Shown in pieces: positions 9,922 to 32,771 of a stretch of 64,000 nt of DNA. The stretch comes from an uncultured Planctomycetales bacterium (lineage in GTDB: Bacteria; Omnitrophota; Gorgyraeia; Zapsychrales; JAHFFX01): NCBI GenBank assembly GCA_964612665.1, contig CAZTCI010000001.1, positions 712,624 through 776,623 on the forward strand. Reading direction: 5' to 3'. The notes under the pieces were generated by a model. The model did no database searches and was not told the DNA's origin. It saw only the letters and a list, made by a program, of their open reading frames with translations. Position 1 is the first letter of the stretch. The number at the start of each line of letters is the position of its first letter. The position numbers and the translations under genes were made by a program.

Positions 9922-10806
9922 CTATTGTTTAGTCAGCTGGGCGAGAGGATTATTTTCAACGAAATCGAGGAATATTGGGCCCGCCACCAAGATACCTACA
10001 ACTGGGAAGATAAAAAACAAAAGTGGGACAAGCATTTTAAGAGGCGCTTTCATGGCCAACTGTTCCCCACGGCGAAAACGGGCTAGCCGCATGTCTTCCG
10101 ATAAAATATTTAAAGCTTCAGCGACCGAGGTTCCCATCTTGTCCGCCTGGATTAACGTTCTGGCCAGCGTTGAAAGATCCGGGAGGTCATACTTTACCGC
10201 CAAATCTTTAATGGCATCACGCCGCGCTTTACCGAGATTAATTTCTTGCATGACAGTATTAAACTCGCGAATAATAACAGATGGCGGCGATTTTTCAACA
10301 ACCCATTTCATTGCCAACATAAAGTCCAGCCCGGCATTAACACAAAGGCGGAGCAAATCAATCGCATCAGGCAATTCTTTTATAATGGCGCTTTTAATCT
10401 TTTTAATTTTACCTTTGAGCCAAAACTCCGGAGCCATATATGCGATTCCGAAACAGCAGGCCAGCCAAATAATAAACATCTGCGGACTTACCATATTAAA
10501 GGTCAGAATAATAAAAAAAACAAAAACCAATTCCTTGACCAAAAAATATTCTTCAGGCGTCATGTTGACATGAGCGATTTCCAAATCTTTCAGCATTCTG
10601 ACCCGAACCGGCCCCATTGTAAAAGGCTTATTAATAAGGGCGAGCTTTCTAATAAAAGAAAGAATCGATCTTTTTCTTTTTAAAGCCCCGACCTCAAAGC
10701 CCGTAAACCCCTGCAACCGCGGCCGGCTTTCCCACTCTATCGGCGAGACGCCCAGTATAAAACTAAACACCGAGATAAATACCATCATAGAAAAAACTGT
10801 AATCAT
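9922..10806 (-). CDS. tadC: Flp pilus assembly inner-membrane platform protein, TadC/TadB family (T2SS F domain)
   Basis: 294 aa, multiple TM segments; GspF/TadB-C-like cytoplasmic domain (…AIIKELPDAIDLLRLCVNAGLDF…); adjacent to second T2SSF paralog. Confidence 0.75.
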   Translation of the reverse strand: MITVFSMMVFISVFSFILGVSPIEWESRPRLQGFTGFEVGALKRKRSILSFIRKLALINKPFTMGPVRVRMLKDLEIAHVNMTPEEYFLVKELVFVFFIILTFNMVSPQMFIIWLACCFGIAYMAPEFWLKGKIKKIKSAIIKELPDAIDLLRLCVNAGLDFMLAMKWVVEKSPPSVIIREFNTVMQEINLGKARRDAIKDLAVKYDLPDLSTLARTLIQADKMGTSVAEALNILSEDMRLARFRRGEQLAMKAPLKMLVPLLFFIFPVVGILVAGPIFLDFVENNPLAQLTKQ

Positions 10807-10818
10807 ATTTTCCTCACT

Positions 10819-11682
10819 TTAAAAATTCTTAAAGGTGCTGATCTTCCAAATAAAAAAAGCACCGATGATTTCTGAAAAAAAGGAATAAATCAACATCGCC
10901 CGGCCCAAAGACGACTTCATCATATGGATTAAAAAATCCGGTTTTGTCGACTGAACAATAATAAGAAATCCTATCGGCAAACAGGACATGACAATGCCTT
11001 GAATTTTTCCCTGCAATGTCAATGTATCGATATTTTGCTGGATTTTTTTATTTTCGCGAATGGTGTTTACGATGCGCGTAAAAATTGCCGGCAGATTGCC
11101 TCCCGTTTCGCGCGCCAAAAGAATCGCCGTAATGGTTTGCTGAAGTGCCGGCGAAGGCATTCTTTTATATAAATGATTGAATGCCTCGTCGAGAGCCACT
11201 CCCATTTTATTTTCACTTAAAACCATGCCGAATTCCTGATCAATCGGCTCCGGCATTTCCTCGACGACCGCTTCCATCGCTTGAACCAAACTCAATCCAC
11301 CTCGAAACGAACTCGACATAATCATGAGTGCGTCGACCAGTTGATTGGCAAATTTTTCTTTTCGTTTGCTGATCAGCATTTTGGCATAAAAACCGGGCAA
11401 TATAAAACCAATCATAAAAAGAGCAATGACACCTATGAGCCGGATAGCCGGTGGAAAAACTATAAAACCGATAATGGCCCCAATGACAGGCGCCAACAAT
11501 GAAGCGCCCGTCATTTTTTTGGAATCGGGTTTCATTAACATCCGTTCCATCTTAGTCGCAAATGTAGGGGCTGCGCGCCTTTCACCAATCACAACAGCAC
11601 GATTCGCAAAAAGGGGCATGGCCGTATAGCCCAAAATAAATACTGAAAGGAATATAAAAAAGAGGAGTATTGGAATGGCCAT
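10819..11682 (-). CDS. tadB: Flp pilus assembly inner-membrane platform protein, TadB/TadC family (T2SS F domain)
   Basis: 287 aa; TM helices plus T2SSF-like domain (…FANQLVDALMIMSSSFRGGLSLVQAME…). Confidence 0.75.
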   Translation of the reverse strand: MAIPILLFFIFLSVFILGYTAMPLFANRAVVIGERRAAPTFATKMERMLMKPDSKKMTGASLLAPVIGAIIGFIVFPPAIRLIGVIALFMIGFILPGFYAKMLISKRKEKFANQLVDALMIMSSSFRGGLSLVQAMEAVVEEMPEPIDQEFGMVLSENKMGVALDEAFNHLYKRMPSPALQQTITAILLARETGGNLPAIFTRIVNTIRENKKIQQNIDTLTLQGKIQGIVMSCLPIGFLIIVQSTKPDFLIHMMKSSLGRAMLIYSFFSEIIGAFFIWKISTFKNF

Positions 11683-11727
11683 AAATTTTTCTCTCGTCTT
11701 ACTTCGTTAATTGCTCACTAAACACGC

Positions 11728-12048
11728 TCAATTATCGCACTCACTCCGACGACAACCGCTAATGCTGCTTTTGATACAACCTACATTCGATAATGAAATA
11801 CAATTAAAGTTGTCTGCGCACTTTGAATCGTACCAGACGTTAAAAAATTGCGGATCGAATTTACATTCGATTGTTTGTTTAGGATCATATTGCCGGCCCG
11901 AACCAAAAGCATCACCCACAGACCGCCAGTGTCCGGCGATTCCCCGGAAAATATATTTCTGAAAAAAAATCAAAGCGCCAATGACAAAAAGAAGCATTAC
12001 TATGTACTCCATGGTAGAAACGGCTTTGTTGTTGGAATATTTTTTCAT
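11728..12048 (-). CDS. Flp-type pilin-like protein with Cys-rich C-terminal extension
   Basis: KAVSTMEYIVMLLFVIGALIF matches the class III/Flp leader (A/G-XXXX-EY then hydrophobic helix). It shares the RGIxGxWRS..D..G.QYDP motif with the other pilin paralogs; C-terminus has 8 Cys. Confidence 0.6.
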   Translation of the reverse strand: MKKYSNNKAVSTMEYIVMLLFVIGALIFFQKYIFRGIAGHWRSVGDAFGSGRQYDPKQTIECKFDPQFFNVWYDSKCADNFNCISLSNVGCIKSSISGCRRSECDN

Positions 12049-12084: not shown

Positions 12085-12347
12085 CAAATCTCAAATGTCA
12101 AAATCCAAATCAATTCCAAATTTTTTAATCCCAAACTGCTCTGACTTCTTTGTATTTCGGATAATACTACTTAAAATCAACAACAACTCTGTACTTTCAA
12201 TGATTAACCAAACCAACTCATTCTTATGTAATTCTTCCTTTCGGCAAAATTAAAGGCCCTATCATAGATGTTGAATTTTCTATTGCTTGACATTGGAAAT
12301 TTAATGATTTATTTGTCATTTGACATTTGGTTTTTGTCATTAATTAA
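12085..12347. repeat. intergenic repeat element copy 1 (26-mer caaatctcaaatgtcaaaatccaaat ... 27-mer tgacatttggtttttgtcattaattaa, with ~180-bp insert between); putative promoter/operator
   Basis: Exact 26-mer at 12085-12110 and 27-mer at 12321-12347 are both repeated at 17655-17680 and 17710-17736. TGACA-N10-TGTCA inverted half-sites. Lies just upstream of the pilin gene 11728..12048. Confidence 0.7.
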
Positions 12348-14797
12348 AACGGCGCATAATCACAGCTCACAAATTTTAAACTAAACCCGCGCTGAGTCCG
12401 GTCAGGACCTGAACCACCTGAACCATTGTGAAAGAAATATTCCGCGCACGTACGGCTCATAACCCCGTGCTCAAGGATGGCATTAACATAATCCCAACAC
12501 GCCGGGGAATCAGTGCGGCGGTTAATCATAAAAGCCTCAGGTGCTTCTTTACTGATGACATCTTTACATACAACATCCAGAGTATTTGGGCTAGGAATAG
12601 ATGATGTAACGGACGGATGTCTAAATTTATACCGCCACACATCCAGCCCCGTCGGTAATTTAATGGTTGTGTCTTTATCTTCGTCCCAGCGGATGACTTG
12701 GGATTTAACAGTTGCGCCAAGGAAACACTTCCGGGCGTTCGAATAATCGTCGGAAGAATCACAACCCCCATAAAGATGAAAGGCATCGCCGAGAGAATAA
12801 CAGCGCATCAAACCCCACATCGTCGTATACGTTTTTATCTTGGCGAGTTTTGGTTCTTTTATTGTTAAGCTCGCGTTATCCGCTTGGTAACAACGGCCGT
12901 TACACCGTCCAGGAATACGTCCGTCAACCCGCACGATATGCCATTTGGCCGAAGATTTAGAAGGATTGGTCGCCGGCGTTTTCCAGGCATAAATGGCTTC
13001 ATTAGGTAAAGGAACCAAGGCCAAATCTTCAATGCGCAGACGTTCTTTACGCAACGCCTCGCCCGCGTTAATGATGTCCGTAAAATGCGACATCGCGCTC
13101 GTGAAGAAATCTCTTAGATATTTAACTTCATTCTCGCGGGCCGCGAGAAAATTCCGTCGGCGTTGAAGTTTTGCCTGCTGATTGACACTTTCATTACCGC
13201 TTTGTACAAGTTTAGGCTGCCAGAATGCGGCGTAATTATTGCCGTCTCCCGCCGCGACGCTTGATGTTCCTCCGACGACAGGATCGGTAAAAGTATTTAA
13301 GCAGCTTCCCTTAGCTAACTTCCAGGATGCCACCGCCGCATTATAAAGAGGATTCCCTGGTCCCCATGTGCCGCACACGCCGGCATTGATGGTATAGGCC
13401 GCGGAACATGTGGCTGTTAGTCCTGAAAGATTAAGAACATTAAGATCGCAGACAATCGATTCGGTTGGCGTAAAAGTTGTTGGTCCTCCGACGGGCGGCA
13501 AGGTTCCCTGACCGATGACCGTTCCAGAAGAGTTATAACATTTATAATCCAAAGAGTTGTCCGCATCTCCAGTACTGTTCCATGAAAAGGAAGTTGGCGA
13601 ATTCGCTGGTCCTTGGCCTGGAACAAACGTTGCCGTACACGACGGACACGGACCGCAATCCCCCGGACAGTTTTTACATGTTTCCGTAAATTGCGACCAT
13701 CCTGTCTTTTCGCAGACACCGTTACCGCAAACAGGGCACGCTCCGCAATCTTGGGCACAGGTTGAACAGTCTTCATTGGCGTCGCATGTACCGTTGCCGC
13801 AGTAAGGACATCCTGCCGGATCAGCCACGCATTGTGTCATTACGTCACAAGCGTTTGGACAGCTTCTTGTTTGCAACCGTGTTCCCAGCGGACAGCCGCC
13901 TGTGCTACAAACAGGATCGCTCACCCACGACGAGCAAATACAACAATCTGGATTATCGAGAAGGCATTGTGTTGTTGCCGAACAATTATAGGTGCAGCTT
14001 CTCGTCTGGTACATATAGTTCCCAAGACAGCCCCCAGCACCGCAGCCGGCATTAGCGAAAGCGGTGCAGGAATCACCCAAACACTGCAATTGCGTCTGGC
14101 AGTTGGCAGGAATACAAGTCCGCGTCTGGCTCATTTGATCAGCAGGACAACCATTGCCGCAGCCACTATTAGCAAAATTACTACAATCGCAGGGAGGATT
14201 AATATTGGCGTAAATTCCGGTATACACATTATTGTAATTAGGACCATTATTAGTGAGCGTTAATCCGATTAATACCGTTATGCCTCCAGTCCCTCCCATG
14301 GACCATCCGTTAATTAGGGGAGCGCACTCAATTATCCATCCGCTTGTTAAACAGCCGGTATCAGTTTTTGATTGTACCCCCGTCGCTATCTGCCCGGCAG
14401 GACACGTAAGGTTGATATAACTAGAACCGGTGGGGCTCATACAGCGATTACAATTCGGTTGATTACCATTAGGAACAGCCACAAACTGGCTACCGCCACC
14501 ACACGTACCTGAGCTGGCGCCTATTCCGACGATACCATTAAAAGCGGTAACAATAGGTGTGCACGGGGCAACTATGTTGTCTGCTCTATTATCGCTACTA
14601 AAGGAGGTTATGGCTTGGTTCACTGGACACGACGAGGAAGAGTCAGCAAAAGCTTTCGAGACAGAAAGCATTAAACAAAGGGAGAAAATACTTCCAACAC
14701 TAAATAAAATCTTCGCCGAGAAAGACCGCATCAGCCCAAATTGTTTATTTCTTTTGAAATGAAACATATGTCCTTTATAAATTTTGATAAGCTTCAC
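12344..14797 (-). CDS. secreted cysteine-rich protein (817 aa) with tandem ~40-aa Cys modules; putative pilus-associated adhesin/tip protein
   Basis: N-terminal signal peptide (…SLCLMLSVSKAFA). Three tandem modules GCGxGxC…QTRxC…NC…TQC, then CGNGxC-type repeats. No recognisable enzyme motifs. Confidence 0.55.
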   Translation of the reverse strand: MKLIKIYKGHMFHFKRNKQFGLMRSFSAKILFSVGSIFSLCLMLSVSKAFADSSSSCPVNQAITSFSSDNRADNIVAPCTPIVTAFNGIVGIGASSGTCGGGSQFVAVPNGNQPNCNRCMSPTGSSYINLTCPAGQIATGVQSKTDTGCLTSGWIIECAPLINGWSMGGTGGITVLIGLTLTNNGPNYNNVYTGIYANINPPCDCSNFANSGCGNGCPADQMSQTRTCIPANCQTQLQCLGDSCTAFANAGCGAGGCLGNYMYQTRSCTYNCSATTQCLLDNPDCCICSSWVSDPVCSTGGCPLGTRLQTRSCPNACDVMTQCVADPAGCPYCGNGTCDANEDCSTCAQDCGACPVCGNGVCEKTGWSQFTETCKNCPGDCGPCPSCTATFVPGQGPANSPTSFSWNSTGDADNSLDYKCYNSSGTVIGQGTLPPVGGPTTFTPTESIVCDLNVLNLSGLTATCSAAYTINAGVCGTWGPGNPLYNAAVASWKLAKGSCLNTFTDPVVGGTSSVAAGDGNNYAAFWQPKLVQSGNESVNQQAKLQRRRNFLAARENEVKYLRDFFTSAMSHFTDIINAGEALRKERLRIEDLALVPLPNEAIYAWKTPATNPSKSSAKWHIVRVDGRIPGRCNGRCYQADNASLTIKEPKLAKIKTYTTMWGLMRCYSLGDAFHLYGGCDSSDDYSNARKCFLGATVKSQVIRWDEDKDTTIKLPTGLDVWRYKFRHPSVTSSIPSPNTLDVVCKDVISKEAPEAFMINRRTDSPACWDYVNAILEHGVMSRTCAEYFFHNGSGGSGPDRTQRGFSLKFVSCDYAPF

Positions 14798-14825: not shown

Positions 14826-17657
14826 TCAAAACGTCTGCACAATATTGACCTGACAACTTGAACCGCCCAATCCATTTGACACGATAATCGTTTTAATTCC
14901 AGGAGTGGAATACGTCGTCGTAAAAGTAGCCGTCCCGGTCCCGCTTACCGGAGAAGCACCTCCGGCTGCATACCATTTATTAAAGGCCGGACCAAGACCT
15001 CCAGCCGCGGATACAGTCACGGTCACTGGACCGTTAAAAGCAAATGCTTGTGTCGCGGGCGAACACACAACGCCAGAACCACCCGGATTAATAACGCCCT
15101 GCGTCGGATAACATCCAACAAGTGGTCCACTTGGTCCCTGCCATGGCGTCGGACAGGTCGGTAAACTCGAACACTTTGTACAATCTCTTAAGCAAGCATC
15201 AAATGCACCAACATCCGGATCCCGGGGCACAACGAAATAATTTGTATCAAAAGGTGAAACCGGATCATTGATTAAAAGCGAGCGTGGCAGATCCGCACAG
15301 TTGCTCTCCCTGCATTTATCTGTAGCCGTACCAATTTGTCCGACGTCGGCAGATGCCGTACCGCATATGCCAAATTTAGGAAGGTTGGTTATGTTGTAAT
15401 CTAAACAGGCAAGAATATTATCTAAAGTTCCCGTGCCCATGACTGCTGATTCCGGTGCTTTCATACCCGCACACATTCCCGGCGGAGTTCCAACGTTTCG
15501 GGTCGGCCAGGTTGTTTGAATGCCGACTGTATTATTAGGAATGCACAACGCTTGATTACAATCCGTTCCTTTAAAAGTAAGGGTCAACCAATAATTCAAT
15601 TTGTCGATCCAGGCTTGATGCTGATCGCGCCAAACAAGCATCTGGCCATTTTGATCGTTATAGAATTGATCAACGTTGCCTTGGGCAACGAGAAACTGCG
15701 CCGCGGTCGGATACCATTCTCTAAATGTGGTACGCAGCGTCATCATGTCCATATTGATTAACTGCGTGGCAAATTTTATAAAATCTTCTACCCCGTAAAC
15801 AAAATCATCAAACGGATCGTCCGGCCACATAGACGGCGGACCCGCTCCCAGCTGGCCGCACATACAGGGCCCTCGTGTTCCGTCGGGAAACGTGCAAGTT
15901 GTTCCGTATTTGGCGCAGGTCGCGGCGTAAGGCCACACGGTCGAACAATAGCGGTCAGCGCCTCGTTTCCATTTTCCGTTAGTAAACGGCGCCACATAAT
16001 CCTGGCCGCAGGTTGTTGCATATTGCATGGGCGCAACGAGAAGATCTTTTGTCGGGTCAGGTAAATTATAAAGAGATTTGACCATGTCTGGCCGCAGAAT
16101 TTTCTTGGAAGTGTCAACGGGGTTGGTGTTATCAAAGATACAGGGGCCTCCATTATATAATCCCGGCGCTGTAGGAAGCGTAAACTGAGGCGCAATTTCA
16201 ACCGCCAATGAACCTGGTAAAGTTAATATCGGATTAATGTTTCCGCATCGAGGATGGGACGGGTCGCAGATATTACATTCATACCGCCGATTTTTATCCG
16301 TCGAATCGAGCAAGAGACCACCTAAGTCCATTCCCCAATCCAATAGTTTATAAAAAATCGGATAAACATACTTCACCTCGCCGGGGGCAGCGAGATCACG
16401 CGTATCATCAAAACGAAACAGCGGTTGCTCCGGATCACTGCTTTGCGCCGCCGAATACATCTTAGAAGGCACATACATATTACGCGCAGGCTGCATTCGG
16501 AAATATTGATTCTCGTCGTCCTTGCCAAAAAGTTCAAGATATGAAAATCTGTTGTTAGAACTGTCTTCAAAAACAGAATTATAAACGTAAGGATAAGAAG
16601 AGCCATAGGGGGACGTCGCCGCACAATGGGCGGCGCCTGAATAGCCGCAGCGGACGGTAGGGTCTGGATCGTCGCAGCATTCTGGCACTGTAGAAAACGC
16701 AAGGCAGGAGCTCGAACTGGCGCAGCCCGTCGTCGGGTCAGGATCATCACAACACGCCGGGCGGCGCGGATCGATTTGGTTTTTATCAACACAACAGGGA
16801 TTACATTCCGCCGGCGGATCATTACTGCAACAAACATGCGCCGGATTTAAACTACAATCAACCGGGTCCCAAAGAAAATTAAGATAACCTTTAAGTGCAT
16901 CAATAAATGCTTGGATCGCGGCCTCGTCGGGTAATGACTGCTGCATCGATTCAAGCCGCTTAGTATAATAAAATCCAAACCGGCTGACCTGGTCGCCGCC
17001 GTTAACTTTGGTTCCAGAAGCAGTAACATAAGCACCATCTAAATCCATGTCGTGAAGATCGTCAATTTGTCCGGGATCTGTGACAACATTTTGTAAAGCG
17101 GCTAAGATTCCCCGCTCCAAAAATCCATCGGTTTTGGGCATGTTTGCGAACATTTTATTCCAAATTGAAGTTAAGCCTGGCTGGACAACTGTTATTTGCA
17201 AAGCCAATGCGGCTGTGGCGACGGCAAGAGCAAGAACGGCGAGCGTTTGAGACATTATAGCAATTAATTCATATTGCTGAAGAACCACAATAACAGCTAT
17301 TGCAACTACAATAATTAATATTTGCAAGACTCCGGTAAACCCACAGATCGTCAAATCACTTCCCGCGCCTTTTTCTCCGCCGAGCTGAGTTTGATAAAGT
17401 TGTTCCGTGTAACTGGCATAACTGGATGCCATCAATGCGGCGCTGGCGTTAGAAGCGACGGCTGTCAGAGTTTTTAATTCAGCGGATTTTCCAAAATTGA
17501 GAGATATCGCAAAAAAGATAATGCTGATGGCGGAGAGAAGAATCAAAATGAGGGCGACTTGGCCGTTGTTCTGCGAAGTCGAACGCGTGGATTTTCGAGA
17601 ATGAATTAATTTTTTAAGGAACCTAAGCACTCTAGATCCTCGAGAGGTTAATGACAA
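14826..17657 (-). CDS. membrane-anchored cysteine-rich protein (943 aa) with pseudopilin-like N-terminal hydrophobic segment and CCDDPDPT repeats
   Basis: Track ORF starts at a TTG inside the repeat element, so the true start is probably downstream. N-term …NNGQVALILILLSAISIIFFAISL, a second TM, then Cys-rich ectodomain. 28 bp upstream of the 817-aa gene, so probably co-transcribed. Confidence 0.5.
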   Translation of the reverse strand: MSLTSRGSRVLRFLKKLIHSRKSTRSTSQNNGQVALILILLSAISIIFFAISLNFGKSAELKTLTAVASNASAALMASSYASYTEQLYQTQLGGEKGAGSDLTICGFTGVLQILIIVVAIAVIVVLQQYELIAIMSQTLAVLALAVATAALALQITVVQPGLTSIWNKMFANMPKTDGFLERGILAALQNVVTDPGQIDDLHDMDLDGAYVTASGTKVNGGDQVSRFGFYYTKRLESMQQSLPDEAAIQAFIDALKGYLNFLWDPVDCSLNPAHVCCSNDPPAECNPCCVDKNQIDPRRPACCDDPDPTTGCASSSSCLAFSTVPECCDDPDPTVRCGYSGAAHCAATSPYGSSYPYVYNSVFEDSSNNRFSYLELFGKDDENQYFRMQPARNMYVPSKMYSAAQSSDPEQPLFRFDDTRDLAAPGEVKYVYPIFYKLLDWGMDLGGLLLDSTDKNRRYECNICDPSHPRCGNINPILTLPGSLAVEIAPQFTLPTAPGLYNGGPCIFDNTNPVDTSKKILRPDMVKSLYNLPDPTKDLLVAPMQYATTCGQDYVAPFTNGKWKRGADRYCSTVWPYAATCAKYGTTCTFPDGTRGPCMCGQLGAGPPSMWPDDPFDDFVYGVEDFIKFATQLINMDMMTLRTTFREWYPTAAQFLVAQGNVDQFYNDQNGQMLVWRDQHQAWIDKLNYWLTLTFKGTDCNQALCIPNNTVGIQTTWPTRNVGTPPGMCAGMKAPESAVMGTGTLDNILACLDYNITNLPKFGICGTASADVGQIGTATDKCRESNCADLPRSLLINDPVSPFDTNYFVVPRDPDVGAFDACLRDCTKCSSLPTCPTPWQGPSGPLVGCYPTQGVINPGGSGVVCSPATQAFAFNGPVTVTVSAAGGLGPAFNKWYAAGGASPVSGTGTATFTTTYSTPGIKTIIVSNGLGGSSCQVNIVQTF

Positions 17658-17848: not shown

Positions 17849-18118
17849 TTACCAATTATTAAACACCAAATTCATCTTTGTGCCCCGATAAAAATCGCCG
17901 TCTAACTGATTGATCGGGCTGTTTGTATCTAAGCCTTGCCAGCTCTCCGAAACAGGCTTAATCAAAGACTTCTCATGCGCATCCCGACGGTAAACAAGGT
18001 CCAGCGCTGACCATCGAAAAGCCTTAAGGCAGGCATAGCCGAGCAATAAAGCAATGATGATGCAAAATGTAAATTCGAGAGTCACCTGCGCTTTTTCTTT
18101 GAACATCTTGTTGTCCAT
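17849..18118 (-). CDS. TadE-like pseudopilin (about 90 aa)
   Basis: Internal Met gives MDNKMFKEKAQVTLEFTFCIIIALLLGYA (A/QVTLEF + hydrophobic helix). Track ORF 17849..18235 has an implausible upstream extension overlapping the next gene. Confidence 0.5.
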   Translation of the reverse strand: MDNKMFKEKAQVTLEFTFCIIIALLLGYACLKAFRWSALDLVYRRDAHEKSLIKPVSESWQGLDTNSPINQLDGDFYRGTKMNLVFNNW

Positions 18119-20387: not shown

Positions 20388-20423
20388 TGAATCCTCTTTT
20401 ATTTGAAAAGAATAAAAACAAAT

Positions 20424-21724: not shown

Positions 21725-21782
21725 TGATTAGTCCTCCTTAAAATTAGACATAAAGTTGCTTGCTTAACAAATGAAGCGGGTA

Positions 21783-22139: not shown

Positions 22140-22192
22140 TTATTTTTCCTCCTCGATGTGAATAAAACAAACCTGATTTCCCATGATTTAAG

Positions 22193-22390: not shown

Positions 22391-22419
22391 TTATATTCCT
22401 CCTTGAACAAATAATGACG

Positions 22420-22584
22420 TTAATTATTGGCGAACTCCTCTTCAACCACCTTTTCGGTTGCCTGCACGGAACGGAACACGTAGGTGCTCATTGCGACCAT
22501 TGCAGCTGAGACTAAAGCGACAACGACGGCATATTCAATTAGGCTTTGTCCTTTTTTGCTTCGTAGTGTTCTTAAATGCCGCAT
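22420..22584 (-). CDS. Flp-type pilin paralog A (54 aa, classic Flp length)
   Basis: internal Met gives MRHLRTLRSKKGQSLIEYAVVVALVSAAMVAM…; track extension to 22686 runs through a terminator hairpin and is rejected. Confidence 0.65.
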   Translation of the reverse strand: MRHLRTLRSKKGQSLIEYAVVVALVSAAMVAMSTYVFRSVQATEKVVEEEFANN

Positions 22585-25075: not shown

Positions 25076-25426
25076 TTAAGCAGCTAGAATTTGAATAGAA
25101 TCGCCTAATTCAGTTTTGGATTTTGAAATAGTTTTAACAGGAAGTTCAATCGCGCGGTTGGCTTTTAAAAAAATAGGGCTGAGCCGAAATGGTTGTATCT
25201 CCTCGAGTAATCCCACCACTTTTCCAGAGTTATCGATAAAAATAACATCAATAGCAAATCGCATAAACAACATGTGAATTGACTGACAATGAGTAATGAT
25301 CAGCCCTTCTCCGTCGACGATAGATTGTCGGTTTAATAAACCAACCATACGGGTTCTGAAAGTATCCGCGAGGACTGCGCGGTCAGCAATAATTATTTTG
25401 CGGGTGGAATTAAATACGGTAAGCAA
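25076..25426 (-). CDS. DUF192 (COG1430) domain protein
   Basis: …ADTFRTRMVGLLNR…GEGLIITHCQSIHMLFMRFAIDVIFIDNSGKVVGL…AIELPVK matches DUF192 core. Confidence 0.6.
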   Translation of the reverse strand: MLTVFNSTRKIIIADRAVLADTFRTRMVGLLNRQSIVDGEGLIITHCQSIHMLFMRFAIDVIFIDNSGKVVGLLEEIQPFRLSPIFLKANRAIELPVKTISKSKTELGDSIQILAA

Positions 25427-25434: not shown

Positions 25435-27603
25435 TTATGGTGTAAAAATGTTTTTATCCAAAGCGATGCCTTTAGAAGAAAAATCTTCGTAACATTTGGG
25501 AACATAACCTGTGGTTTTATAGTCACCTAGAATTTTCCCGTCGCTGTCTGTTCCTAGACGTTCAAAAATAAAAATGTCGCGTAAATCCAACTGGTGTGTC
25601 TTCTGATCAACGCCGGCCACTTCGGTTATGCCGGTTATTTTTCTTGAACCATCTGAAAAACGGTTGACTTGAACGATGATGTCGATGGCTGAGCCGATCA
25701 TTTCATACATGGCGCTTAAGGGAAGTTCAACGCCCGTTAAAAGCATCATGGCCGTTAAACGAACCAAAACATCGCGTGTGGTATTGGCGTGGATTGTCGT
25801 CAAGGAACCATCGTGACCTGTGTTCATAGCCTGCAACATATCTAATACTTCTGCGCCGCGGCACTCACCAATGACAATCCTATCAGGACGCATACGAAGC
25901 GTATTCACAAACAAATCACGAATAGAAACAGCGCCTTTTCCTTCAATGTTCGCCGGGCGTGCTTCCAACCGGCCCCAATGACTGTACGGTTTAAGCCGCA
26001 ATTCGGCGGCGTCTTCTATGGTGATAATGCGTTCTCCGTCGGGAACAAAAAGGGAAATAATGTTAAGCAATGTTGTTTTACCGGCGCCTGTACCGCCGGA
26101 AACAATAATGTTACTTCTTCCCAAAACTGCGGCATGAAGAAAATCAGCCATCGGCTGAGACAAACTCTTAAAGCGATGGATCAAATCGTCAATCGTATAA
26201 CGTTCTTGGCTGAATTTACGGATCGTGACCATTGGTCCATTTAAAGATAACGGACGAATAATAGCATTAATACGAGACCCGTCGGGCAAACGCGCATCAA
26301 CCATCGGTGTCGACTCATCAATACGCCGGCCCAAGGGCGCAACAATACGGTCAATAACCGAACGAACCTGTTGTTCGGAAATAAACCGCCGATTGGTTAA
26401 AATTAATTTCCCATGTTTTTCAATGTAGATCTCATCCTTCTTATTAACCATGATATCGGTGACGTCTGAATCTGCCAAAAACTCTTCGATAGGACCAAGC
26501 CCTAGCGTTTCGTTTACAATTTCTTTAACCAGCCGGGTTCGCTCTTCATGGGAAGAAATGATAGCGCCCGCTTCCTCGGCGAGAATATTGCTGACAATTT
26601 TTTCAGTTGTCTCACGGATTTTCTGAAACTGCTGCGGGTTCGCCAAGGCTTCCGGAGTCAGGTCTTTTAAATCCATCTTGCCTAACAACTTTTCATGGGT
26701 CTTCTTTTTAAGCCGAACGACTTCGTCTTCTTCGTTAACATTGTAAATTTTATCTTTCCCTTTTTCCTGTACGCCTTGAGCAATGCCAAATTTTTCCCAA
26801 AACTCACCCGGCTTACCTAAATCTTCTGTTGTTCTTAATTTAGCTATGTCGGTCGCCTGCACAAAAAGTCCAGGCGCATTTAAATCGTTGACCATCTTAT
26901 TAAAAGCCGCCGCGACTTTGCTGCGCGGACTATCAACGACACAGGGAACGCCGCGGTTTAAAGCCATTCCAACCGCTTTTCCGTCGGAAGGAATTTGGGC
27001 AAAAATTTCGCAAGCCAAGGCCGCCTTAACTTCCTGCCAGGCAACCCCGCCATAACTTTCAGCACGGTTTAAAATTAACCTGACCATTTTGAGAGGGAAA
27101 TGCAGGCTCTGTAAAACTTCTAAGGCCGTTCGGATTTGATAAACAGCCAGAATATCTGGTGTCGCAATAAGAAAAATTAGATTGGAATAATCTAAAATGG
27201 TGATCAGCGTCTCGCTAAAGGCCTTACCGCCGTCGATAATAATGTAATCGTAAAGCTGGCCAACTTTTTTAAGAAAGGGTTTAATATTGTCAGGTGTAAT
27301 GTGACCAACTTGGCGGACGTGCGTGACGGCGGGGAGAAAATCAAATCCAGCAGAATGCGCCACAACATATCTTTTAATAATCGTGGGGTCGTTGTCTTTT
27401 TCTATTTCAGCCAAAAGATCAACGATAGCTAGACGGGGGGACAAATTGAGCATCCGGGCCATATCCTGAGCGGCCTGGAAGTCCATGTCCAAAAGCAAAA
27501 CCTTGTGGCCGCTCAACGCCAATGCCGTCGAGAGATTGACACACACAAAAGTTTTGCCAACCCCACCTTTATTACTAAAAACTGCTACGCTTTTTGCAGG
27601 CAT
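25435..27603 (-). CDS. tadZ-tadA: fused TadZ/CpaE-like ParA-family ATPase (N-term, about 260 aa) + TadA/CpaF secretion ATPase (C-term); 722 aa
   Basis: N-term deviant Walker A VFSNKGGVGKT (MinD/ParA/CpaE). C-term SGGTGAGKTTLLN…ITIEDAAEL…TGHDGSLTTIHANT (VirB11/CpaF family). One uninterrupted ORF. Confidence 0.8.
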   Translation of the reverse strand: MPAKSVAVFSNKGGVGKTFVCVNLSTALALSGHKVLLLDMDFQAAQDMARMLNLSPRLAIVDLLAEIEKDNDPTIIKRYVVAHSAGFDFLPAVTHVRQVGHITPDNIKPFLKKVGQLYDYIIIDGGKAFSETLITILDYSNLIFLIATPDILAVYQIRTALEVLQSLHFPLKMVRLILNRAESYGGVAWQEVKAALACEIFAQIPSDGKAVGMALNRGVPCVVDSPRSKVAAAFNKMVNDLNAPGLFVQATDIAKLRTTEDLGKPGEFWEKFGIAQGVQEKGKDKIYNVNEEDEVVRLKKKTHEKLLGKMDLKDLTPEALANPQQFQKIRETTEKIVSNILAEEAGAIISSHEERTRLVKEIVNETLGLGPIEEFLADSDVTDIMVNKKDEIYIEKHGKLILTNRRFISEQQVRSVIDRIVAPLGRRIDESTPMVDARLPDGSRINAIIRPLSLNGPMVTIRKFSQERYTIDDLIHRFKSLSQPMADFLHAAVLGRSNIIVSGGTGAGKTTLLNIISLFVPDGERIITIEDAAELRLKPYSHWGRLEARPANIEGKGAVSIRDLFVNTLRMRPDRIVIGECRGAEVLDMLQAMNTGHDGSLTTIHANTTRDVLVRLTAMMLLTGVELPLSAMYEMIGSAIDIIVQVNRFSDGSRKITGITEVAGVDQKTHQLDLRDIFIFERLGTDSDGKILGDYKTTGYVPKCYEDFSSKGIALDKNIFTP

Positions 27604-27607
27604 TTTT

Positions 27608-29827
27608 TTATTTTTGCAAACTAAAAACGATTGGTATTGTTAAATCCAATTCTTGGAGGTTAGTATCCGCAGGAAACGCGGTGTAAGGGGCCAGGCTTTT
27701 GGCGGTTGTAAGAGCAGCTTCATCGAAGATGTCGTGGCCAGAGGACTCTTTTACAGCAGCATAAGCTAAAGTCCCATCGCTTAAAATATGCAGCATCAAT
27801 TTTACGGTGCCTTCCCAATTGTATTGCCTTGCCTCGTCGGGATAATTGATGGCACTAGCGATTTTTTGTTGGACGGCGGCAGCGTAATTTTGACTTGATG
27901 AACTCTTAGCAGCCGCCGGTTTTGAAACTTTCTGACTATAAACAATAGGAACGTTCAACACCAAATCATCTAAATTTAATTTCAAAGGAAACGCGTCATA
28001 AGGTGAAAGAACTTGTGCCGTATGAAGCGCATCTTTATCAAAAATATTGTATCCTGAGGATTCTTTAATTTGTGAATCAGCTAATGAACCATTTTTTAAA
28101 AGATGTAAGCTCAATGTAACCGTTCCCTCCCAGCCTTTTTCTTTAGCTTCCGGCGGGTAGGTGATAGCCTTAGAAATTTTTTCTTGGATTGTTTTTGAAT
28201 AAGCGTCGATCAGGTCCTTTTGTTCAGCATTATTTCCGGATGCCCCTGCTTGTTCTCCTGAAGATTGATCTGTCGCTTCGGCGGTGGCATCTTGAAGCGG
28301 TATGGCATCAGCATTTTCAGACATTGAGCTTTGTGTTGGCATTCTCGACGGAGGGACTGATGTTTCAGATGTCATTGATGAATCTGATGACGACACTGAA
28401 GCGGCGTCGGATGTGGAAGATTCCGTTGTCTTAGCAGCAGGCGGAGGAACCTCTTTCGTTTTTTGCCGAAGAATCGTAGGCGTTACGGAAATAATTAACT
28501 CAGTGTCTTGATTGTTAGACGAAGGCGTTTTACGGGATCGGAAAACCGCACCCACAATAGGAATATCGCCCAGGAAAGGAACCTTGCGGACTGTTTCTCC
28601 CTCAACATGCTTAATCAAGCCAGCCAGAATAATCGTCTGCTGGTCGTCTAAAAGCAGCTGCGTTTGTGCCGTGCGGGTAGCAAAGGCAGGAACTTGCCCG
28701 ACGGAATGCGTTGGATCAACTTCGCTGACCTCGGTATTCATGACGACATTGACTTTATCCTGTTGGATTGTGGGGGTGATCGTTAGACTGATACCAAAAT
28801 CTTTAAACTCAACATTAGTCTGCACATTACCACCAACGGTCGTAGATGTCGTACTGATTGGAACCTGTCCTCCGACGAGAAAACTGGCCTCCTTACCGCT
28901 TTTGACGACCAATTTAGGTTTTGAAAGGACCCGGCCTTTTCCTTCTTCGACGACTGCATTAATAACGGCAGAAACAGATGTTGTTCGTCTAAGTTTGGCT
29001 ACTTTAAAAATGCTGTCTGCAAAAGGAATAGAACTTTGTGCTGTGCTGTCGACAAGCCCTTTTCCAGGCAACCCCTCGGTAATATTAATTTGATCAACCC
29101 AGTCTAAGCCGATGCTTTTGGATGCGGTGGCATTTAACTCGGCGAGCTGAACATCAACCTGAACCAAGTCGTTGCTGATATCTTCACGCAAAAGATTAAT
29201 CACATTGGTCATGTAAGGATGAATAATAGCGTCGGCCTCGGCTTTCTTTTGTTCACTTAAATTACCCGAAGCCACGACCTTACCTTCGTAAAGGTTCACT
29301 TCAAGATTAACTCCGTCGATCTTGGCGACTTTGAAAAGTTCTTCCAGCCGGGTTTTTAAAATATTTAAATCCTCGGCGTAAACACGGATCATTATTGTCC
29401 GCTTGCCATATTGGTCCCACACAAATAAAGCTGATTGTCCTGGTTTCTTGGCCAGCAAGAGGATTTCATCATTGGTGACATTCGCGATGTCCGCAATGTC
29501 AGGATCACTTACAGAAACACGCACTAATGAATAGGCTTTAATCGGAGTGAGTTCTCCTTTAAGCATGTGAACTTCGTCTTGATGTAGGATGTCAGGAGGA
29601 AGGTCTTTGGAGTCTTGCTTAGCATCTTGTTTCGTATCTTGGCTGGCGGTCTTGTCCTCGCCAAAAATTTCTTTCGGAGCAATCCATAGAGTTTCCATTA
29701 AAATGAAACCCATCAAAACAACCCACGCACAGCTCTTATTGATTTTTTTATCAAAAGCTCGGTGATTTAGGCTAGATCTCTTTTCCTCGACGGAATAAAA
29801 ATCTATAAGCTGTTTTTTATTTTTCAT
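27608..29827 (-). CDS. cpaC: Flp pilus secretin CpaC/RcpA-like with two C-terminal TonB C-terminal (TonB_C) domains; 739 aa
   Basis: Secretin core …VRKVPFLGDIPIVGAVFRS…ELIISVTPTIL. Two repeats at the C-terminus, YPPEAKEKGWEGTVTLSLHLLKNGSL…ESSGYNIFDKDAL and YPDEARQYNWEGTVKLMLHILSDGTL…ESSGHDIFDEAAL, each fit the TonB_C signature. Confidence 0.75.
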   Translation of the reverse strand: MKNKKQLIDFYSVEEKRSSLNHRAFDKKINKSCAWVVLMGFILMETLWIAPKEIFGEDKTASQDTKQDAKQDSKDLPPDILHQDEVHMLKGELTPIKAYSLVRVSVSDPDIADIANVTNDEILLLAKKPGQSALFVWDQYGKRTIMIRVYAEDLNILKTRLEELFKVAKIDGVNLEVNLYEGKVVASGNLSEQKKAEADAIIHPYMTNVINLLREDISNDLVQVDVQLAELNATASKSIGLDWVDQINITEGLPGKGLVDSTAQSSIPFADSIFKVAKLRRTTSVSAVINAVVEEGKGRVLSKPKLVVKSGKEASFLVGGQVPISTTSTTVGGNVQTNVEFKDFGISLTITPTIQQDKVNVVMNTEVSEVDPTHSVGQVPAFATRTAQTQLLLDDQQTIILAGLIKHVEGETVRKVPFLGDIPIVGAVFRSRKTPSSNNQDTELIISVTPTILRQKTKEVPPPAAKTTESSTSDAASVSSSDSSMTSETSVPPSRMPTQSSMSENADAIPLQDATAEATDQSSGEQAGASGNNAEQKDLIDAYSKTIQEKISKAITYPPEAKEKGWEGTVTLSLHLLKNGSLADSQIKESSGYNIFDKDALHTAQVLSPYDAFPLKLNLDDLVLNVPIVYSQKVSKPAAAKSSSSQNYAAAVQQKIASAINYPDEARQYNWEGTVKLMLHILSDGTLAYAAVKESSGHDIFDEAALTTAKSLAPYTAFPADTNLQELDLTIPIVFSLQK

Positions 29828-29852
29828 CTACGTTAGGCTCCTAAAAATGAGA

Positions 29853-30650
29853 TTATAATTCCCGGCCCCCGCGAAATATTTGAATAACCGGCTTAGCTTC
29901 TTCAGCGGCTGGTTCGAATGAACTGGTTTTCGCCTTTGTCCCGCCAAGTTCAGTACCTTGTCTTTCCAAAACATAGTCCGCGAGCGTTTGCCAATTATAA
30001 GGAGGTACCATAAATGATTCTGTTTCGGAAGGAGAACGTAACGCCAACTGGAGCTTACCATTTTGCTGAACAAAACTCAGCAGCCCTGCTTCTTCTGGAT
30101 CCAGCGCAAAAGTCACAGTCAAATCCTTGGTCTGCTGCTGGGCTTCATAAACACCAGGAGAATTCACATTCGTCCCGACAGCTAAGACTTGAACGTTTTG
30201 AAAAATCATGGCTGTAATTGTTTGGGCTGGTTGATATCCGACTTGCTGAGAACCGGGAGGTGTCATCTGCGCGAGAATGTCGACGAAATCGCCGGGATTG
30301 ATTAAACCACCGACGGCGGCGAGAGAATCAATTCGAACAGTGACGGCTCTCTTGCCCGCAGGTGTTTTGACAGCTAATGATGATTGGGGAATAATGGCAG
30401 CCGGCCCTTTTTCGGCGGCGGCTTTTTGCGCGGCAGCAATTGCCTGTTGGCGCACAGTGCCTAATTCTGTTTTTAATGCGGTGATTTCTTCTTTGAGGGG
30501 TTCAACATTTTTTTGAATTTCTTGAGAGGCAACTTCTTCTTTTTTAGTGATTTCACTTTGAATATAATTTCCGGCTCCGATGGCGGCGATTAATCCTATG
30601 GTCAACGCGATCACAATGATAACAATCGTTCTTCGCTGTTCATTGGTCAT
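29853..30650 (-). CDS. cpaB: Flp pilus assembly protein CpaB/RcpC (SAF domain)
   Basis: N-terminal TM, coiled region, …AVTVRIDSLAAVGGLINPGDFVDILA… typical of CpaB. Confidence 0.7.
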   Translation of the reverse strand: MTNEQRRTIVIIVIALTIGLIAAIGAGNYIQSEITKKEEVASQEIQKNVEPLKEEITALKTELGTVRQQAIAAAQKAAAEKGPAAIIPQSSLAVKTPAGKRAVTVRIDSLAAVGGLINPGDFVDILAQMTPPGSQQVGYQPAQTITAMIFQNVQVLAVGTNVNSPGVYEAQQQTKDLTVTFALDPEEAGLLSFVQQNGKLQLALRSPSETESFMVPPYNWQTLADYVLERQGTELGGTKAKTSSFEPAAEEAKPVIQIFRGGREL

Positions 30651-31633
30651 AACTTGACTCCTTCTAAAAGGGATTCATTACGTGTGACTGGTTTCTTTTG
30701 TTCCAGTTCTTTAAGATAACTTTCAACGGTTTGCTGCTGTTTAATTTGGAGCAATCCGTTTTTAATATCGTTTTTCACGTCGAGGAAACCTAATTGTTTC
30801 CCGCCCTTTTTCTCCTCAAGTTTTACAATCGAGTACCCTTCCGATCCTTTAAAAACCGCGCTGACATCACCGACTTCCAAATTCAAAACCGCCGCGGCCG
30901 TGGCTTGATCTAAATCAGCTCCCTTAATTAAACCTAAATCTCCGCCTTTAGCCGCTGTTTTTCCTTTGGAACGTGCTTGGGCAGTTTGCGCAAAGTCTGC
31001 GCCTTTTAAAACATCAACCAGAATATCTTTCGCCTCGGGTTGAGTAGGAACAACGATCGCGCGCAAATGATATTCGGCCGGCTCAACAAACATATTTTTG
31101 TTTTGGTTAAAATAATCTTGGACTTCGTTGTCCGTGACGGTGACACTTGTGATCAAATTATTAACATTTTCTCGGACAAGAAGCGTCCGACGGAATTCGC
31201 TAACCGCATCTTGGATTTCTTTTTTATTTCCCAAACCTTTTTCTTCAGCATCCATGACCATCAACTGCTGCCTGACCAATTCATCTAATACGAGCTTCTT
31301 GGATTCGGGTTTCTTTATGTCAAAATCAGGCACGACGTCTTTTAAATTCTTAAGCCGGTCTTTAAATTCATCGACTGTGATTGACCAGCTGCCGACACTT
31401 GCCAGGACATCGGCTTGCGTGTTTAAAGCCGCAGCTGCGCTGGCTTGGTCTTTAATTTTTTCCGTCGAGGTTTTAACCGGCGGTGGTTGAACTGCTTTGT
31501 CTTCGCTTGTGCTGGCTGTTGTTTTTTTGTTTTTGTTAAAAATTGATTCGATCGTTGAAGAAATTTGATCACAGCCAGCAATAGTTAAACAAAATAAGGC
31601 GGCCGCGACAATAAAAATTCTATCTTTTTTCAT
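30647..31633 (-). CDS. lipoprotein peptidyl-prolyl isomerase (SurA/PrsA-like, parvulin-type)
   Basis: lipobox LTIAGC; SurA-N-like region and rotamase segment …GGDLGLIKGADLD…GYSIVKLEE. Confidence 0.6.
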   Translation of the reverse strand: MKKDRIFIVAAALFCLTIAGCDQISSTIESIFNKNKKTTASTSEDKAVQPPPVKTSTEKIKDQASAAAALNTQADVLASVGSWSITVDEFKDRLKNLKDVVPDFDIKKPESKKLVLDELVRQQLMVMDAEEKGLGNKKEIQDAVSEFRRTLLVRENVNNLITSVTVTDNEVQDYFNQNKNMFVEPAEYHLRAIVVPTQPEAKDILVDVLKGADFAQTAQARSKGKTAAKGGDLGLIKGADLDQATAAAVLNLEVGDVSAVFKGSEGYSIVKLEEKKGGKQLGFLDVKNDIKNGLLQIKQQQTVESYLKELEQKKPVTRNESLLEGVKL

Positions 31634-31724
31634 TCAAAGAAACCTTAATAAATAAATTTAGAGTAAGTATAACCTAGCTTTTTGGGAAAAACAAAGATGT
31701 TTTAAAAAATTCTTGAGGCTTAAA

Positions 31725-32771
31725 TTAACAGGGTGGCCCGCCGCCTCCTGCTCCCTTAGGACATCCATGGCAGTCAAAATTTTTATTTCTAAAACCCTGA
31801 TTAAATCGTTGATCGCAATTAAAATTAGTAGCTGGATTATTCCAATCCGTTGACCAGACAGGACAGCTTTTTCCCCTAATAATACAATTTGCCGGTCCTA
31901 GACCTCCAGCAGGAGGAACGTTGGAACACTTTACAGTACCTATTACCGTGTCACTCGAACTTGGAAAACAAGAAGTCCCTTCCTGAAAATATATTTCCCC
32001 CGTAGCTGTATTGTTGGCAACGCAACCCCAATTGCTTCCGCCCGACATATTAACATCACAACCCGCAATAAATGGGCATTCTGGAGGACATCGAAGGGCT
32101 GGATTTACATCGGTGCCTTGGCAATCCCCGTTAACATTTGTAAGTGGTATATTACATTCCGGCGGCTGGCATCTTTGCAATTGAGGATCAAAGGGGTAAG
32201 CTCCGTCGCACACCGCTTCGCATTTGGCACCTGTACAATTAGCGACGGGGATCCACGGCGTTGGCGAGGGAACATTCTGGTCTGAGCCAGTGCAAATCGT
32301 TGCATGGTCAGGAATTGAACCGGTGCATCCAGCCGGACAGATAGGATCAGGAACACAATTTTTGGGCTGAAGATTATTGCCGCATTGAATTAGTGTGCTT
32401 TGTCCCGTCGGACAGCCGCCGCTCGCTCCGCACAATTTCGTACAGCAGGTATCATCAACAATACAACTGGTTTCCTGAGGTTCACAATCAAGAGGCGTGC
32501 AATTTTTTTGATACAGCTTTTCCGTCGGTTTACACGATCCCAATCCGCAGCCAATCGGTTCTTTCGGGCATTTACATGTGGGCGCCGGAAAATCAAAGCC
32601 TCCTTTTATCATTGGGTCGGTGTAAGAATCGTCGGCAACATCTTCCCACATTTTAAGATGGGCATTGACCGAGCGAATAACATACGGCCCCATGACAACA
32701 ATCCCAACCATGACCAAAACCATAACCGTAAGATATTCAAGCGTTGATTGGGCTTCTTTGGATAGGCGCAT
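31725..32771 (-). CDS. large Flp-motif pilin-like cysteine-rich protein (348 aa)
   Basis: MRLSKEAQSTLEYLTVMVLVMVGIVVMG (A/QSTL-EY + helix); rest has >40 Cys in CxxC/CPxxC patterns. Confidence 0.6.
   Translation of the reverse strand: MRLSKEAQSTLEYLTVMVLVMVGIVVMGPYVIRSVNAHLKMWEDVADDSYTDPMIKGGFDFPAPTCKCPKEPIGCGLGSCKPTEKLYQKNCTPLDCEPQETSCIVDDTCCTKLCGASGGCPTGQSTLIQCGNNLQPKNCVPDPICPAGCTGSIPDHATICTGSDQNVPSPTPWIPVANCTGAKCEAVCDGAYPFDPQLQRCQPPECNIPLTNVNGDCQGTDVNPALRCPPECPFIAGCDVNMSGGSNWGCVANNTATGEIYFQEGTSCFPSSSDTVIGTVKCSNVPPAGGLGPANCIIRGKSCPVWSTDWNNPATNFNCDQRFNQGFRNKNFDCHGCPKGAGGGGPPC

Follow-up and report, generated by a model that had tools for sequence, protein, structure and literature searches.

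How are the prepilins of a Tad-like locus matured when the locus itself holds no gene for a prepilin peptidase? The question is raised by a cluster on the minus strand at 9922-32771 of the window (the whole 64-kb stretch of DNA that was analysed), which belongs to the oriC region of a Candidatus Omnitrophota chromosome. The preliminary description of this DNA had left two answers open, a peptidase encoded elsewhere or processing by another enzyme such as the C39-like domain of a giant protein. We infer, with a probability of roughly 85%, that the prepilins are cut by an A24 peptidase encoded outside the locus, most probably the type IVa PilD and less probably an orphan TadV.

Gene content of the locus

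Judging from its genes, the cluster is a Tad-like (type IVc) pilus/secretion locus that is conserved in Omnitrophota and lies beside oriC. The giant gene is directly downstream of it, as described for the Omnitrophota secretion locus (bioRxiv 10.1101/2023.11.21.568195). The features are as follows.

3..9236, minus strand: 5' part of the giant gene, a stop-free frame of >3078 codons that continues past the left window end
8232..8909, minus strand: Peptidase C39 domain of the giant protein, about residues 110-335, with Cys186, His271 and Asp287 (PF03412, E=2.5e-11)
8991..9068, minus strand: N-terminal membrane anchor of the giant protein, about residues 57-82 (hydropathy scan)
9922..10806, minus strand: tadC, platform protein (T2SSF, 1.5e-13)
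10819..11682, minus strand: tadB, platform protein (T2SSF, 1.1e-17)
11728..12048, minus strand: prepilin-like protein of 106 aa, leader NKA|VSTMEY, Cys-rich C-terminus (motif scan)
12344..14797, minus strand: Cys-rich protein of 817 aa with an apparently Sec-signal-like N-terminus, not a prepilin (translation); no Pfam or NCBIfam match
14826..17657, minus strand: TadG-like protein of 943 aa, N-terminus NNG|QVALILILL, three N-terminal hydrophobic helices (translation and transmembrane scan)
17849..18109, minus strand: TadE/F-like pseudopilin, leader EKA|QVTLEF (motif scan)
18150-18662: extra, inserted 23S-rRNA-IVP/four-helix-bundle gene
18734..20119, minus strand: pseudopilin-like protein of 461 aa, leader SKA|QTSTEL (motif scan), kept in relatives
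20073..22584, minus strand: tandem array of seven Flp/class III-signal prepilin genes (20073-20387, 20424-20837, 20837-21226, 21401-21724, 21783-22139, 22193-22390, 22420-22584), weak Flp_Fap and Class_IIIsignal matches, leaders [K/R]x[G/A]|Qxx(x)EY
22908..24572, minus strand: conserved protein of 554 aa, apparently soluble, weak N-terminal HTH
25076..25426, minus strand: DUF192 protein, directly downstream of the ATPase (PF02643, 8.6e-18)
25435..27603, minus strand: fused TadZ (ParA/MinD-like) and TadA/CpaF ATPase, 722 aa (AAA_31/CbiA/ParA at residues 4-241; T2SSE at residues 368-644, 1.6e-55)
27608..29827, minus strand: RcpA/CpaC secretin fused to two TonB_C domains (Pfam, Secretin 7e-42)
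29853..30650, minus strand: RcpC/CpaB (PF16976, 6e-26)
30647..31633, minus strand: PpiC/SurA-like rotamase (Pfam), N-terminus apparently lipoprotein-like
31725..32771, minus strand: prepilin-like protein of 348 aa, leader KEA|QSTLEY, Cys-rich C-terminal domain (translation and motif scan)

Pfam searches of the cluster recognised TadC and TadB (both T2SSF), the fused TadZ-TadA ATPase, the secretin with TonB_C, RcpC, the PpiC rotamase and DUF192. Of the components by which a Tad system is defined, class III-signal prepilins, TadA/CpaF with TadZ, single-domain TadB and TadC, an RcpA secretin and RcpC/CpaB were found, and the dedicated TadV/CpaA peptidase, also a core component, was not. The TadE, TadF and TadG candidates fit by N-terminal motifs and gene order, with no Pfam or NCBIfam match. 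An Rfam search of the locus gave no match. Counterparts of the 554-aa protein were found in all relatives, with lengths of 566-978 aa, and the DUF192 gene in most of them (it was not called in locus L100). The rotamase occupies the position that tadV has in many other Tad loci, as judged from the positions of A24 genes in other phyla.

A motif scan identified 10 ORFs in which [G/A/S]xxxxE[Y/F/L] comes after K/R and before a hydrophobic stretch, where shuffled sequence would give 0.17. With the 65-aa Flp (22193-22390) there are 11 ORFs with a class III signal, and with the TadG-like 943-aa protein 12, so the earlier count of at least nine prepilin-like genes was right.

A24 genes in the window, in related loci and in other phyla

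The absence of an A24 prepilin peptidase from the locus, as first described, was borne out by four methods and extends to the whole window. Pfam detected no PF01478 in any window ORF of at least 100 aa; a six-frame hmmsearch of the window with a TadV profile (built from 21 TadV sequences, two seeds of which were checked and are PF01478) gave a best match with E=3.1, which is noise; a motif scan found no GxGD motif in a hydrophobic context in the window; and in the transmembrane scan the only multi-helix ORFs of the window were TadB, TadC, YidC, the TadG-like N-terminus and the giant protein. No ORF or frame of the window encodes a polytopic protein with two catalytic aspartates, the second in GxGD, which is what identifies an A24 enzyme. 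The three-helix N-terminus of the TadG-like protein is conserved in relatives. It has no conserved GxGD, acidic motif or membrane Asp, and was for this reason discarded as a candidate cryptic protease.

The same absence was found in relatives. No A24 gene was present in at least 12 (about 15) related Omnitrophota loci, covered by Pfam-annotated contexts from five other species and by searching loci L001-L009 and L087-L096 in six frames with the HMM. A metagenome scan with the 461-aa protein recovered 10 Omnitrophota loci, none of them with an A24 gene. We found no mention of a prepilin peptidase in Omnitrophota in the literature.

For other phyla, a contig scan with the ATPase gave, among the matches listed, 3 Omnitrophota loci and 77 others, the latter serving as baseline and as the source of A24 seeds. 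Among these listed matches, 42 non-Omnitrophota loci had a fused TadZ-TadA and at least 8 kb on both sides. An A24 gene was present in 26 of the 42 listed loci (62%), as a rule 2.5-5 kb upstream of the ATPase gene, and was missing within 8-10 kb in the remaining 16 (38%), which include one in the complete genome of Bdellovibrio sp. HCB288. A locus without an A24 gene is therefore common among such clusters and not unusual. Given that the gene is absent uniformly from all the Omnitrophota loci examined and present in 62% of the comparable listed loci of other phyla, there is a real lineage-specific loss or relocation.

Leader peptides and candidate peptidases

The 11 ORFs share the pattern [G/A]|QxxxE[Y/F/L] followed by a hydrophobic helix. 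Their Flp_Fap and Class_IIIsignal matches are below the Pfam cut-off, with the exception of the 65-aa ORF for Class_IIIsignal (25.6 vs 23.7 bits). The residues before the cut are K/R/L-G or K/E/T-A; a Gly at -2 is absent from all 11 leaders, and in five the -1 residue is Ala and not Gly. Against processing by PilD, Ala at -1 is cleaved less efficiently than Gly by bacterial PilD enzymes. On their sequence, the leader peptides are canonical A24 substrates.

The roughly 12 precursors carry ordinary class III signal peptides (basic leader, Gly/Ala at -1, Gln at +1 and Glu at +5, hydrophobic helix). [quoted passage not shown] The likeliest enzyme would be PilD from the type IVa pili, a system that nearly all Omnitrophota carry. 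Type IVa pili were reported in 135 of 141 Velamenicoccia genomes and, for the remaining classes of Omnitrophota, in the majority of genomes, and the Omnitrophota TadB/C group phylogenetically with those of Bdellovibrionales (PMC10066038). In the part of the KO/Pfam table of the same study that was considered, K02654 and PF01478 with PF06750 are present in two Omnitrophota genomes, numbers 58 and 231, for which that part has no RcpC or Flp Pfam matches, hence these two are not proven Tad carriers (PMC10066038). Against the proposal, the sequences covered showed no A24 gene either for this organism or for any Omnitrophota genome with the locus. In Bdellovibrio bacteriovorus, which has a TadZA fusion and tad loci without TadV, the PilD of the type IVa pili is encoded away from these loci; in E. 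coli it cuts PilA as well as Flp1, and its catalytic mutants do not (bioRxiv 10.64898/2026.07.08.737194). By analogy with this result, PilD may be shared in Omnitrophota as well.

A less probable source would be an orphan gene product of the TadV type, i.e. a dedicated TadV/CpaA-like A24 enzyme of about 170 aa without a methyltransferase domain, encoded elsewhere in the genome and distinct from a shared PilD. Sharing of PilD is not universal: Flp of Pseudomonas aeruginosa requires FppA and reportedly is not processed by PilD there. The associated peptidase in the 26 of the 42 comparable listed loci is a short TadV-type protein, and the Gln at +1 and the Class_IIIsignal matches resemble the substrates of TadV/EppA-like enzymes. 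Given, on the other side, that no such gene occurs in the window and that, among systems with a TadZA fusion, the nearest functional precedent relies on PilD, we regard a dedicated enzyme as possible but doubtful.

The membrane-anchored C39-like domain that had been put forward as the alternative is indeed present in the giant protein; it is the only Pfam match in residues 1-795, and there is none in residues 796-3078. The Cys186-His271-Asp287 triad does not vary among 13 homologues, AlphaFold models the core with pLDDT values of 80-95, and the best structural match by Foldseek is LahT150 (6MPZ; TM 0.71, E 7.9e-6; by sequence E=0.005), followed by PCAT1. From sequence and model, the domain looks like an active cysteine protease of the double-glycine type. 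The anchor motif SRFKxWIRxVAL...PEQxSWAFNYNP has 3-4 K/R on its N-terminal side and none on its C-terminal side in the 13 homologues, and this charge distribution predicts an N-in anchor with the C39 domain outside, in the periplasm. The homologues of the giant N-terminus were contig-end fragments in every case.

Removal of the prepilin leaders by this domain would fit with its invariant triad, its membrane anchor, its constant position adjoining the locus (bioRxiv 10.1101/2023.11.21.568195) and the lack of an A24 gene in the locus of every relative examined. The nearest relatives in sequence and structure, however, are double-glycine leader proteases (LahT150 6MPZ, PCAT1, NHLP-type ABC peptidases). 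Such proteases cleave after GG, GA or GS, and in the 11 leaders position -2 is taken by K, R, L, E or T and in no case by G. No prepilin peptidase outside the A24 family is known from any type IV filament system. The domain is also predicted to be periplasmic, while class III leaders are cut at the cytoplasmic face (PMC10191384). Since no leader has Gly at -2 and the domain is predicted to lie on the opposite side of the membrane, a role of C39 as prepilin peptidase is not supported and we give it next to no probability. Of the two answers first offered, an enzyme encoded elsewhere is the one favoured, by the canonical leaders, the 38% of comparable listed loci that lack a nearby A24 gene, the Bdellovibrio precedent and the type IVa pili. 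As to the topology and substrate of C39, we infer a separate periplasm-facing cysteine protease, predicted to be catalytically competent, which probably acts on the giant protein to which it belongs or on some other double-glycine substrate, and not on the pilins.

An A24-like domain could also lie in the downstream part of the giant protein outside the window, or the locus could encode a new protease, e.g. DUF192 or the 554-aa protein. Giant Omnitrophota proteins hold many transmembrane regions and embedded enzymes, in one case a signal-peptidase-II domain (bioRxiv 10.64898/2026.06.07.730766), and DUF192 and the 554-aa protein recur beside the ATPase in relatives with no known function. This is nevertheless very unlikely: the 3078 visible residues of the giant protein give no A24 signal, A24 is not listed among giant-protein domains (bioRxiv 10.64898/2026.06.07.730766; bioRxiv 10.1101/2023.11.21.568195), the transmembrane scan shows neither DUF192 nor the 554-aa protein to be polytopic, and the TadG-like N-terminus, as stated above, has no conserved acidic motif. 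That carriers of the locus have no A24 enzyme able to cut these prepilins, and that maturation depends on an enzyme of another family linked to the giant-gene locus (C39, an embedded or an unknown protease), is extremely improbable; if true, no earlier type IV filament system would be known to do without a GxGD prepilin peptidase.

If processing by an A24 enzyme from outside the locus holds, the finding is mainly annotation housekeeping: the "complete Tad" locus of Omnitrophota is complete but for the peptidase, and these bacteria, like Bdellovibrio, would rely on an enzyme from outside, most plausibly that of the type IVa pili. Two surface machines thought to be active in predation or epibiosis would become coupled if the peptidase is shared. 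An attractive but unsupported role of C39 in pilin maturation is removed, its real substrate probably being the giant protein. The finding would be important only if an A24 gene is missing from these genomes altogether.

Comparison with known systems

Canonical Tad loci (Aggregatibacter flp-tadV-rcpCAB-tadZABCDEFG; Caulobacter pilA-cpaA-K) have in common with the window locus the G/xxxxEY Flp pilins, RcpC, the RcpA secretin, TadZ, TadA, TadB, TadC and TadE/F/G-like pseudopilins. The window locus differs from them in that no tadV/cpaA stands beside flp, TadZ and TadA are fused, TadD and RcpB were not recognised, and the pilin paralogues form a tandem series of seven, the majority of them with C-terminal extensions of 50-90 residues. 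The C39 domain of the giant protein resembles the double-glycine peptidases of PCAT/AMS ABC transporters (LahT150 6MPZ, PCAT1, ComA) and FapD in fold, Cys-His-Asp triad and HFV...D motif; unlike the PCAT/AMS peptidases it is not fused to an ABC transporter and has a single N-terminal helix as anchor, a predicted periplasmic location and a protein of >3000 aa attached.

The locus of V. archaeovorus LiM (CP019384.1, 12382-29832; Seymour 2023, West-Roberts 2023) has the same gene set, order and oriC-adjacent position, the shared order being rotamase, RcpC, secretin, ATPase, small class III-signal genes, T2SSF proteins and a giant gene with N-terminal C39. ATPase identity to named Omnitrophota proteins is 65-77%, and the window organism is a different species from LiM, with the extra gene at 18150-18662. 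The Omnitrophota locus has been published as "complete" or "T2SS-like" with no comment on the missing prepilin peptidase (Seymour 2023, West-Roberts 2023).

The closest precedent is tad locus 1 of B. bacteriovorus, which is alike in the fused TadZ-TadA, the lack of TadV in the loci, the predatory lifestyle and the type IVa pili. The tad genes of Bdellovibrio are scattered over several loci, with tadC apart from tadB, whereas in the window all but the peptidase are gathered in one 23-kb operon-like cluster, which in addition carries the secretin-TonB_C fusion, the PpiC rotamase, DUF192, Cys-rich pilin-like proteins and the adjacent giant gene.

Origin region and layout of the pilus locus

The window is a segment of a bacterial chromosome surrounding the replication origin, with a GC content minimum (0.31) and a sign change in GC skew at ~44 kb. 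The fused pilus ATPase shares 65-77% identity with proteins named Candidatus Omnitrophota or Omnitrophica, and a protein of identical sequence is present in the Logan assemblies of SRR12313477-79. Based on Pfam and the translations, the pilus locus occupies 32771-9922 of the minus strand.

Genes of the pilus locus in order, and other features of the window
31725-32771, minus: 348-aa prepilin-like Cys-rich protein
then, minus: PpiC/SurA-type rotamase
then, minus: RcpC
27608-29827, minus: secretin with two TonB_C domains
then, minus: TadZ-TadA fusion
25076-25426, minus: DUF192 gene, directly after the TadZ-TadA gene
24795-25064, plus: small double-zinc-ribbon gene, after DUF192 on the opposite strand
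then, minus: conserved 554-aa protein
then, minus: seven tandem Flp/class III-signal pilin genes
then, minus: 461-aa, then 86-aa pseudopilin-like protein
14826-17657, minus: TadG-like 943-aa protein
12344-14797, minus: Cys-rich 817-aa protein
11728-12048, minus: 106-aa prepilin-like protein
then, minus: TadB, then TadC
from 9236, minus: giant ORF, 685 bp from the pilus locus, leaving the window after >3078 codons
43040-44386, minus: dnaA
near origin, minus: dnaN, DciA-domain gene, gyrB, gyrA
near origin, plus: yidC, parA, parB
58384-58545, plus: 6S RNA (Rfam RF00013, 60 bits), upstream of an MgsA-family (RarA-like) AAA+ ATPase gene
36251-36324 and 51437-51972: four tRNA genes

This is a conserved Omnitrophota locus already in the literature. 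Seymour et al. 2023 (PMC10066038) described it, in V. archaeovorus LiM at 12382-29832 and likewise adjoining the origin, and West-Roberts et al. 2023 (bioRxiv 10.1101/2023.11.21.568195) reported a secretion system, a Rotamase_2 gene and small class III-signal genes followed by a giant gene that carries a C39 domain at the N-terminus.

Several further features were observed. The C-terminal TonB_C domains of the secretin (4.8e-33; one or two in relatives) form a fusion that is unusual among RcpA/CpaC proteins. The C-terminal regions of the 106-aa and 348-aa pilin-like proteins and of the 817-aa and 943-aa proteins are very rich in Cys, with recurring CxxC/CxC patterns. These regions had no family match and could represent tip or adhesin modules that are disulfide-rich or bind metal. 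DUF192 is found in most Omnitrophota relatives examined and was not called in the related locus L100. Neither ORFs nor Rfam matches occur in the gap between tadC and the giant gene (9237-9921), which may be a promoter or regulatory region of the latter. A MazE/MazF (PemK) toxin-antitoxin pair (33938-34503, minus strand) lies just upstream of the pilus locus between malate/lactate dehydrogenase and nitrilase genes; the related loci L098 and L100 lack it there.

Inside the pilin operon, between the 461-aa and TadE-like genes, a 170-aa 23S-rRNA-intervening-sequence/four-helix-bundle protein is encoded (18150-18662, minus strand; PF05635, 3.8e-11), overlapping the upstream portion of ORF 17849-18235; in this place four related loci (L005, L098, L099, L100) have only a small pseudopilin gene without a PF05635 match. 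The Avd proteins found in diversity-generating retroelements belong to this family, and no reverse transcriptase was found in Pfam scans of the window.

Prepilins and the missing A24 peptidase

Ten ORFs matched a prepilin scan (the motif [G/A/S]xxxxE[Y/F/L] with K/R before it and a hydrophobic stretch after it), compared with 0.17 in shuffled sequence. A 65-aa Flp (leader MLKNKRG|QSTLEY) was missed by the filter solely through its very short leader, and the TadG-like protein, with NNG|QVALIL, lacks glutamate at +5 (Glu5). The total is thus 12, in agreement with the at least nine prepilin-like genes of the preliminary description. Among the 11 Glu5 leaders, position -1 is Gly in six and Ala in five, +1 is Gln in 10/11, and -2 is K, R, L, E or T; by sequence, these are textbook class III signal peptides. 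The Ala(-1)/Gln(+1) pattern resembles that of archaeal EppA substrates (Class_IIIsignal/DUF361) and may be informative on the specificity of the missing peptidase.

The absence of an A24 prepilin peptidase (PF01478; TadV/CpaA or PilD), previously noted for the cluster, was found to extend to all 64 kb. No Peptidase_A24 was detected by Pfam in any window ORF of at least 100 aa, and a TadV profile built from 21 A24 sequences of Tad loci in other phyla (two seeds were checked against Pfam, both PF01478) gave a top window match of E=3.1 in the six-frame translation with all filters off. The window contains no GxGD motif in a hydrophobic context. Several membrane helices were predicted in TadB, TadC, YidC, the TadG-like N-terminus and the giant protein, and in no other ORF. 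The TadG-like N-terminus was rejected as a peptidase since it has no conserved acidic motif; DUF192 and the 554-aa protein are unlikely candidates, neither scoring as polytopic in the transmembrane scan. No A24 signal came from the 3078 residues of the giant protein that lie in the window; conceivably, an A24-like segment could lie in its part beyond the window.

The same absence was observed in relatives. In five other Omnitrophota species with the same gene order, three of them on contigs of 0.78-3.4 Mb, the Pfam-annotated neighbourhoods contained no A24 within ±10 kb of the ATPase, and the TadV profile had no match in the related loci L001-L009 or in ten metagenome loci that surround the 461-aa gene and extend to tadB, tadC and the giant gene start. 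This absence is a property of the Omnitrophota lineage.

We compared 42 Tad loci with a TadZ-TadA fusion from other phyla, each including 8 kb or more on either side of the ATPase. An A24 gene was present in 26, typically on the same strand and 2.5-5 kb upstream of the ATPase, roughly the position occupied by the rotamase gene in Omnitrophota, and absent from 16 (38%), among them a complete Bdellovibrio genome. A missing A24 gene is therefore not unusual but common among Tad loci. Fused TadZ-TadA is widespread, being seen in Tad loci labelled Bdellovibrionota, Acidobacteriota, Chloroflexota, Actinomycetota, Firmicutes, Nitrospirales and others (L010-L086), so that the fusion is not peculiar to predators.

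The C39 domain of the giant protein

The domain (PF03412, E=2.5e-11) has Cys186, His271 and Asp287 invariant among 13 homologues and an AlphaFold core with pLDDT 80-95 over residues 110-335. Its top structural matches are the double-glycine protease LahT150 (6MPZ, TM 0.71) and then PCAT1, and its sequence matches are 6MPZ, NHLP-type bacteriocin ABC peptidases and FapD. The domain is genuine and, judged from the alignment and the model, is predicted to be an active protease.

C39 double-glycine proteases cut after GG, GA or GS, and none of the 11 window leaders has Gly at -2. Given that positive charges lie N-terminal of the helix in the conserved anchor SRFKxWIRxVAL...PEQxSWAFNYNP, the domain should be periplasmic, whereas prepilin leaders are cleaved on the cytoplasmic side, prepilin peptidases being polytopic aspartyl proteases with the active site towards the cytoplasm (review PMC10191384). 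Both points argue against C39 as the pilin peptidase, the substitute suggested in the preliminary description. Cleavage of the giant proteins themselves by their C39 domains, as suggested by West-Roberts et al. (bioRxiv 10.1101/2023.11.21.568195), fits better than cleavage of the prepilins.

A probable A24 enzyme encoded outside the locus

The other suggestion, a peptidase encoded elsewhere, is likely to be right. The class III leaders, the Bdellovibrio precedent and the widespread type IVa pili point to an A24 enzyme outside the locus that would mature the prepilins, most likely as a shared PilD and secondly as an orphan TadV. Type IVa pili were reported in 135/141 Velamenicoccia genomes and most genomes of other Omnitrophota classes (PMC10066038), and part of a table in the same paper lists at least two Omnitrophota genomes with K02654 and PF01478+PF06750, both apparently not Tad carriers. 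That genomes carrying this locus truly have no suitable A24 enzyme is highly improbable.

The locus is a further example of the known Omnitrophota pilus/secretion locus, whose TadB/C cluster with Bdellovibrionales (Seymour et al., PMC10066038). Bdellovibrio bacteriovorus, with an atypical TadZA hybrid and tad loci without canonical TadV, is a direct precedent: the PilD of its type IVa pili, whose gene lies outside those loci, processes both PilA and Flp1 in E. coli, an activity lost in catalytic mutants (bioRxiv 10.64898/2026.07.08.737194, July 2026 preprint). The A24 absence thereby has an explanation with experimental support in the nearest analogue.
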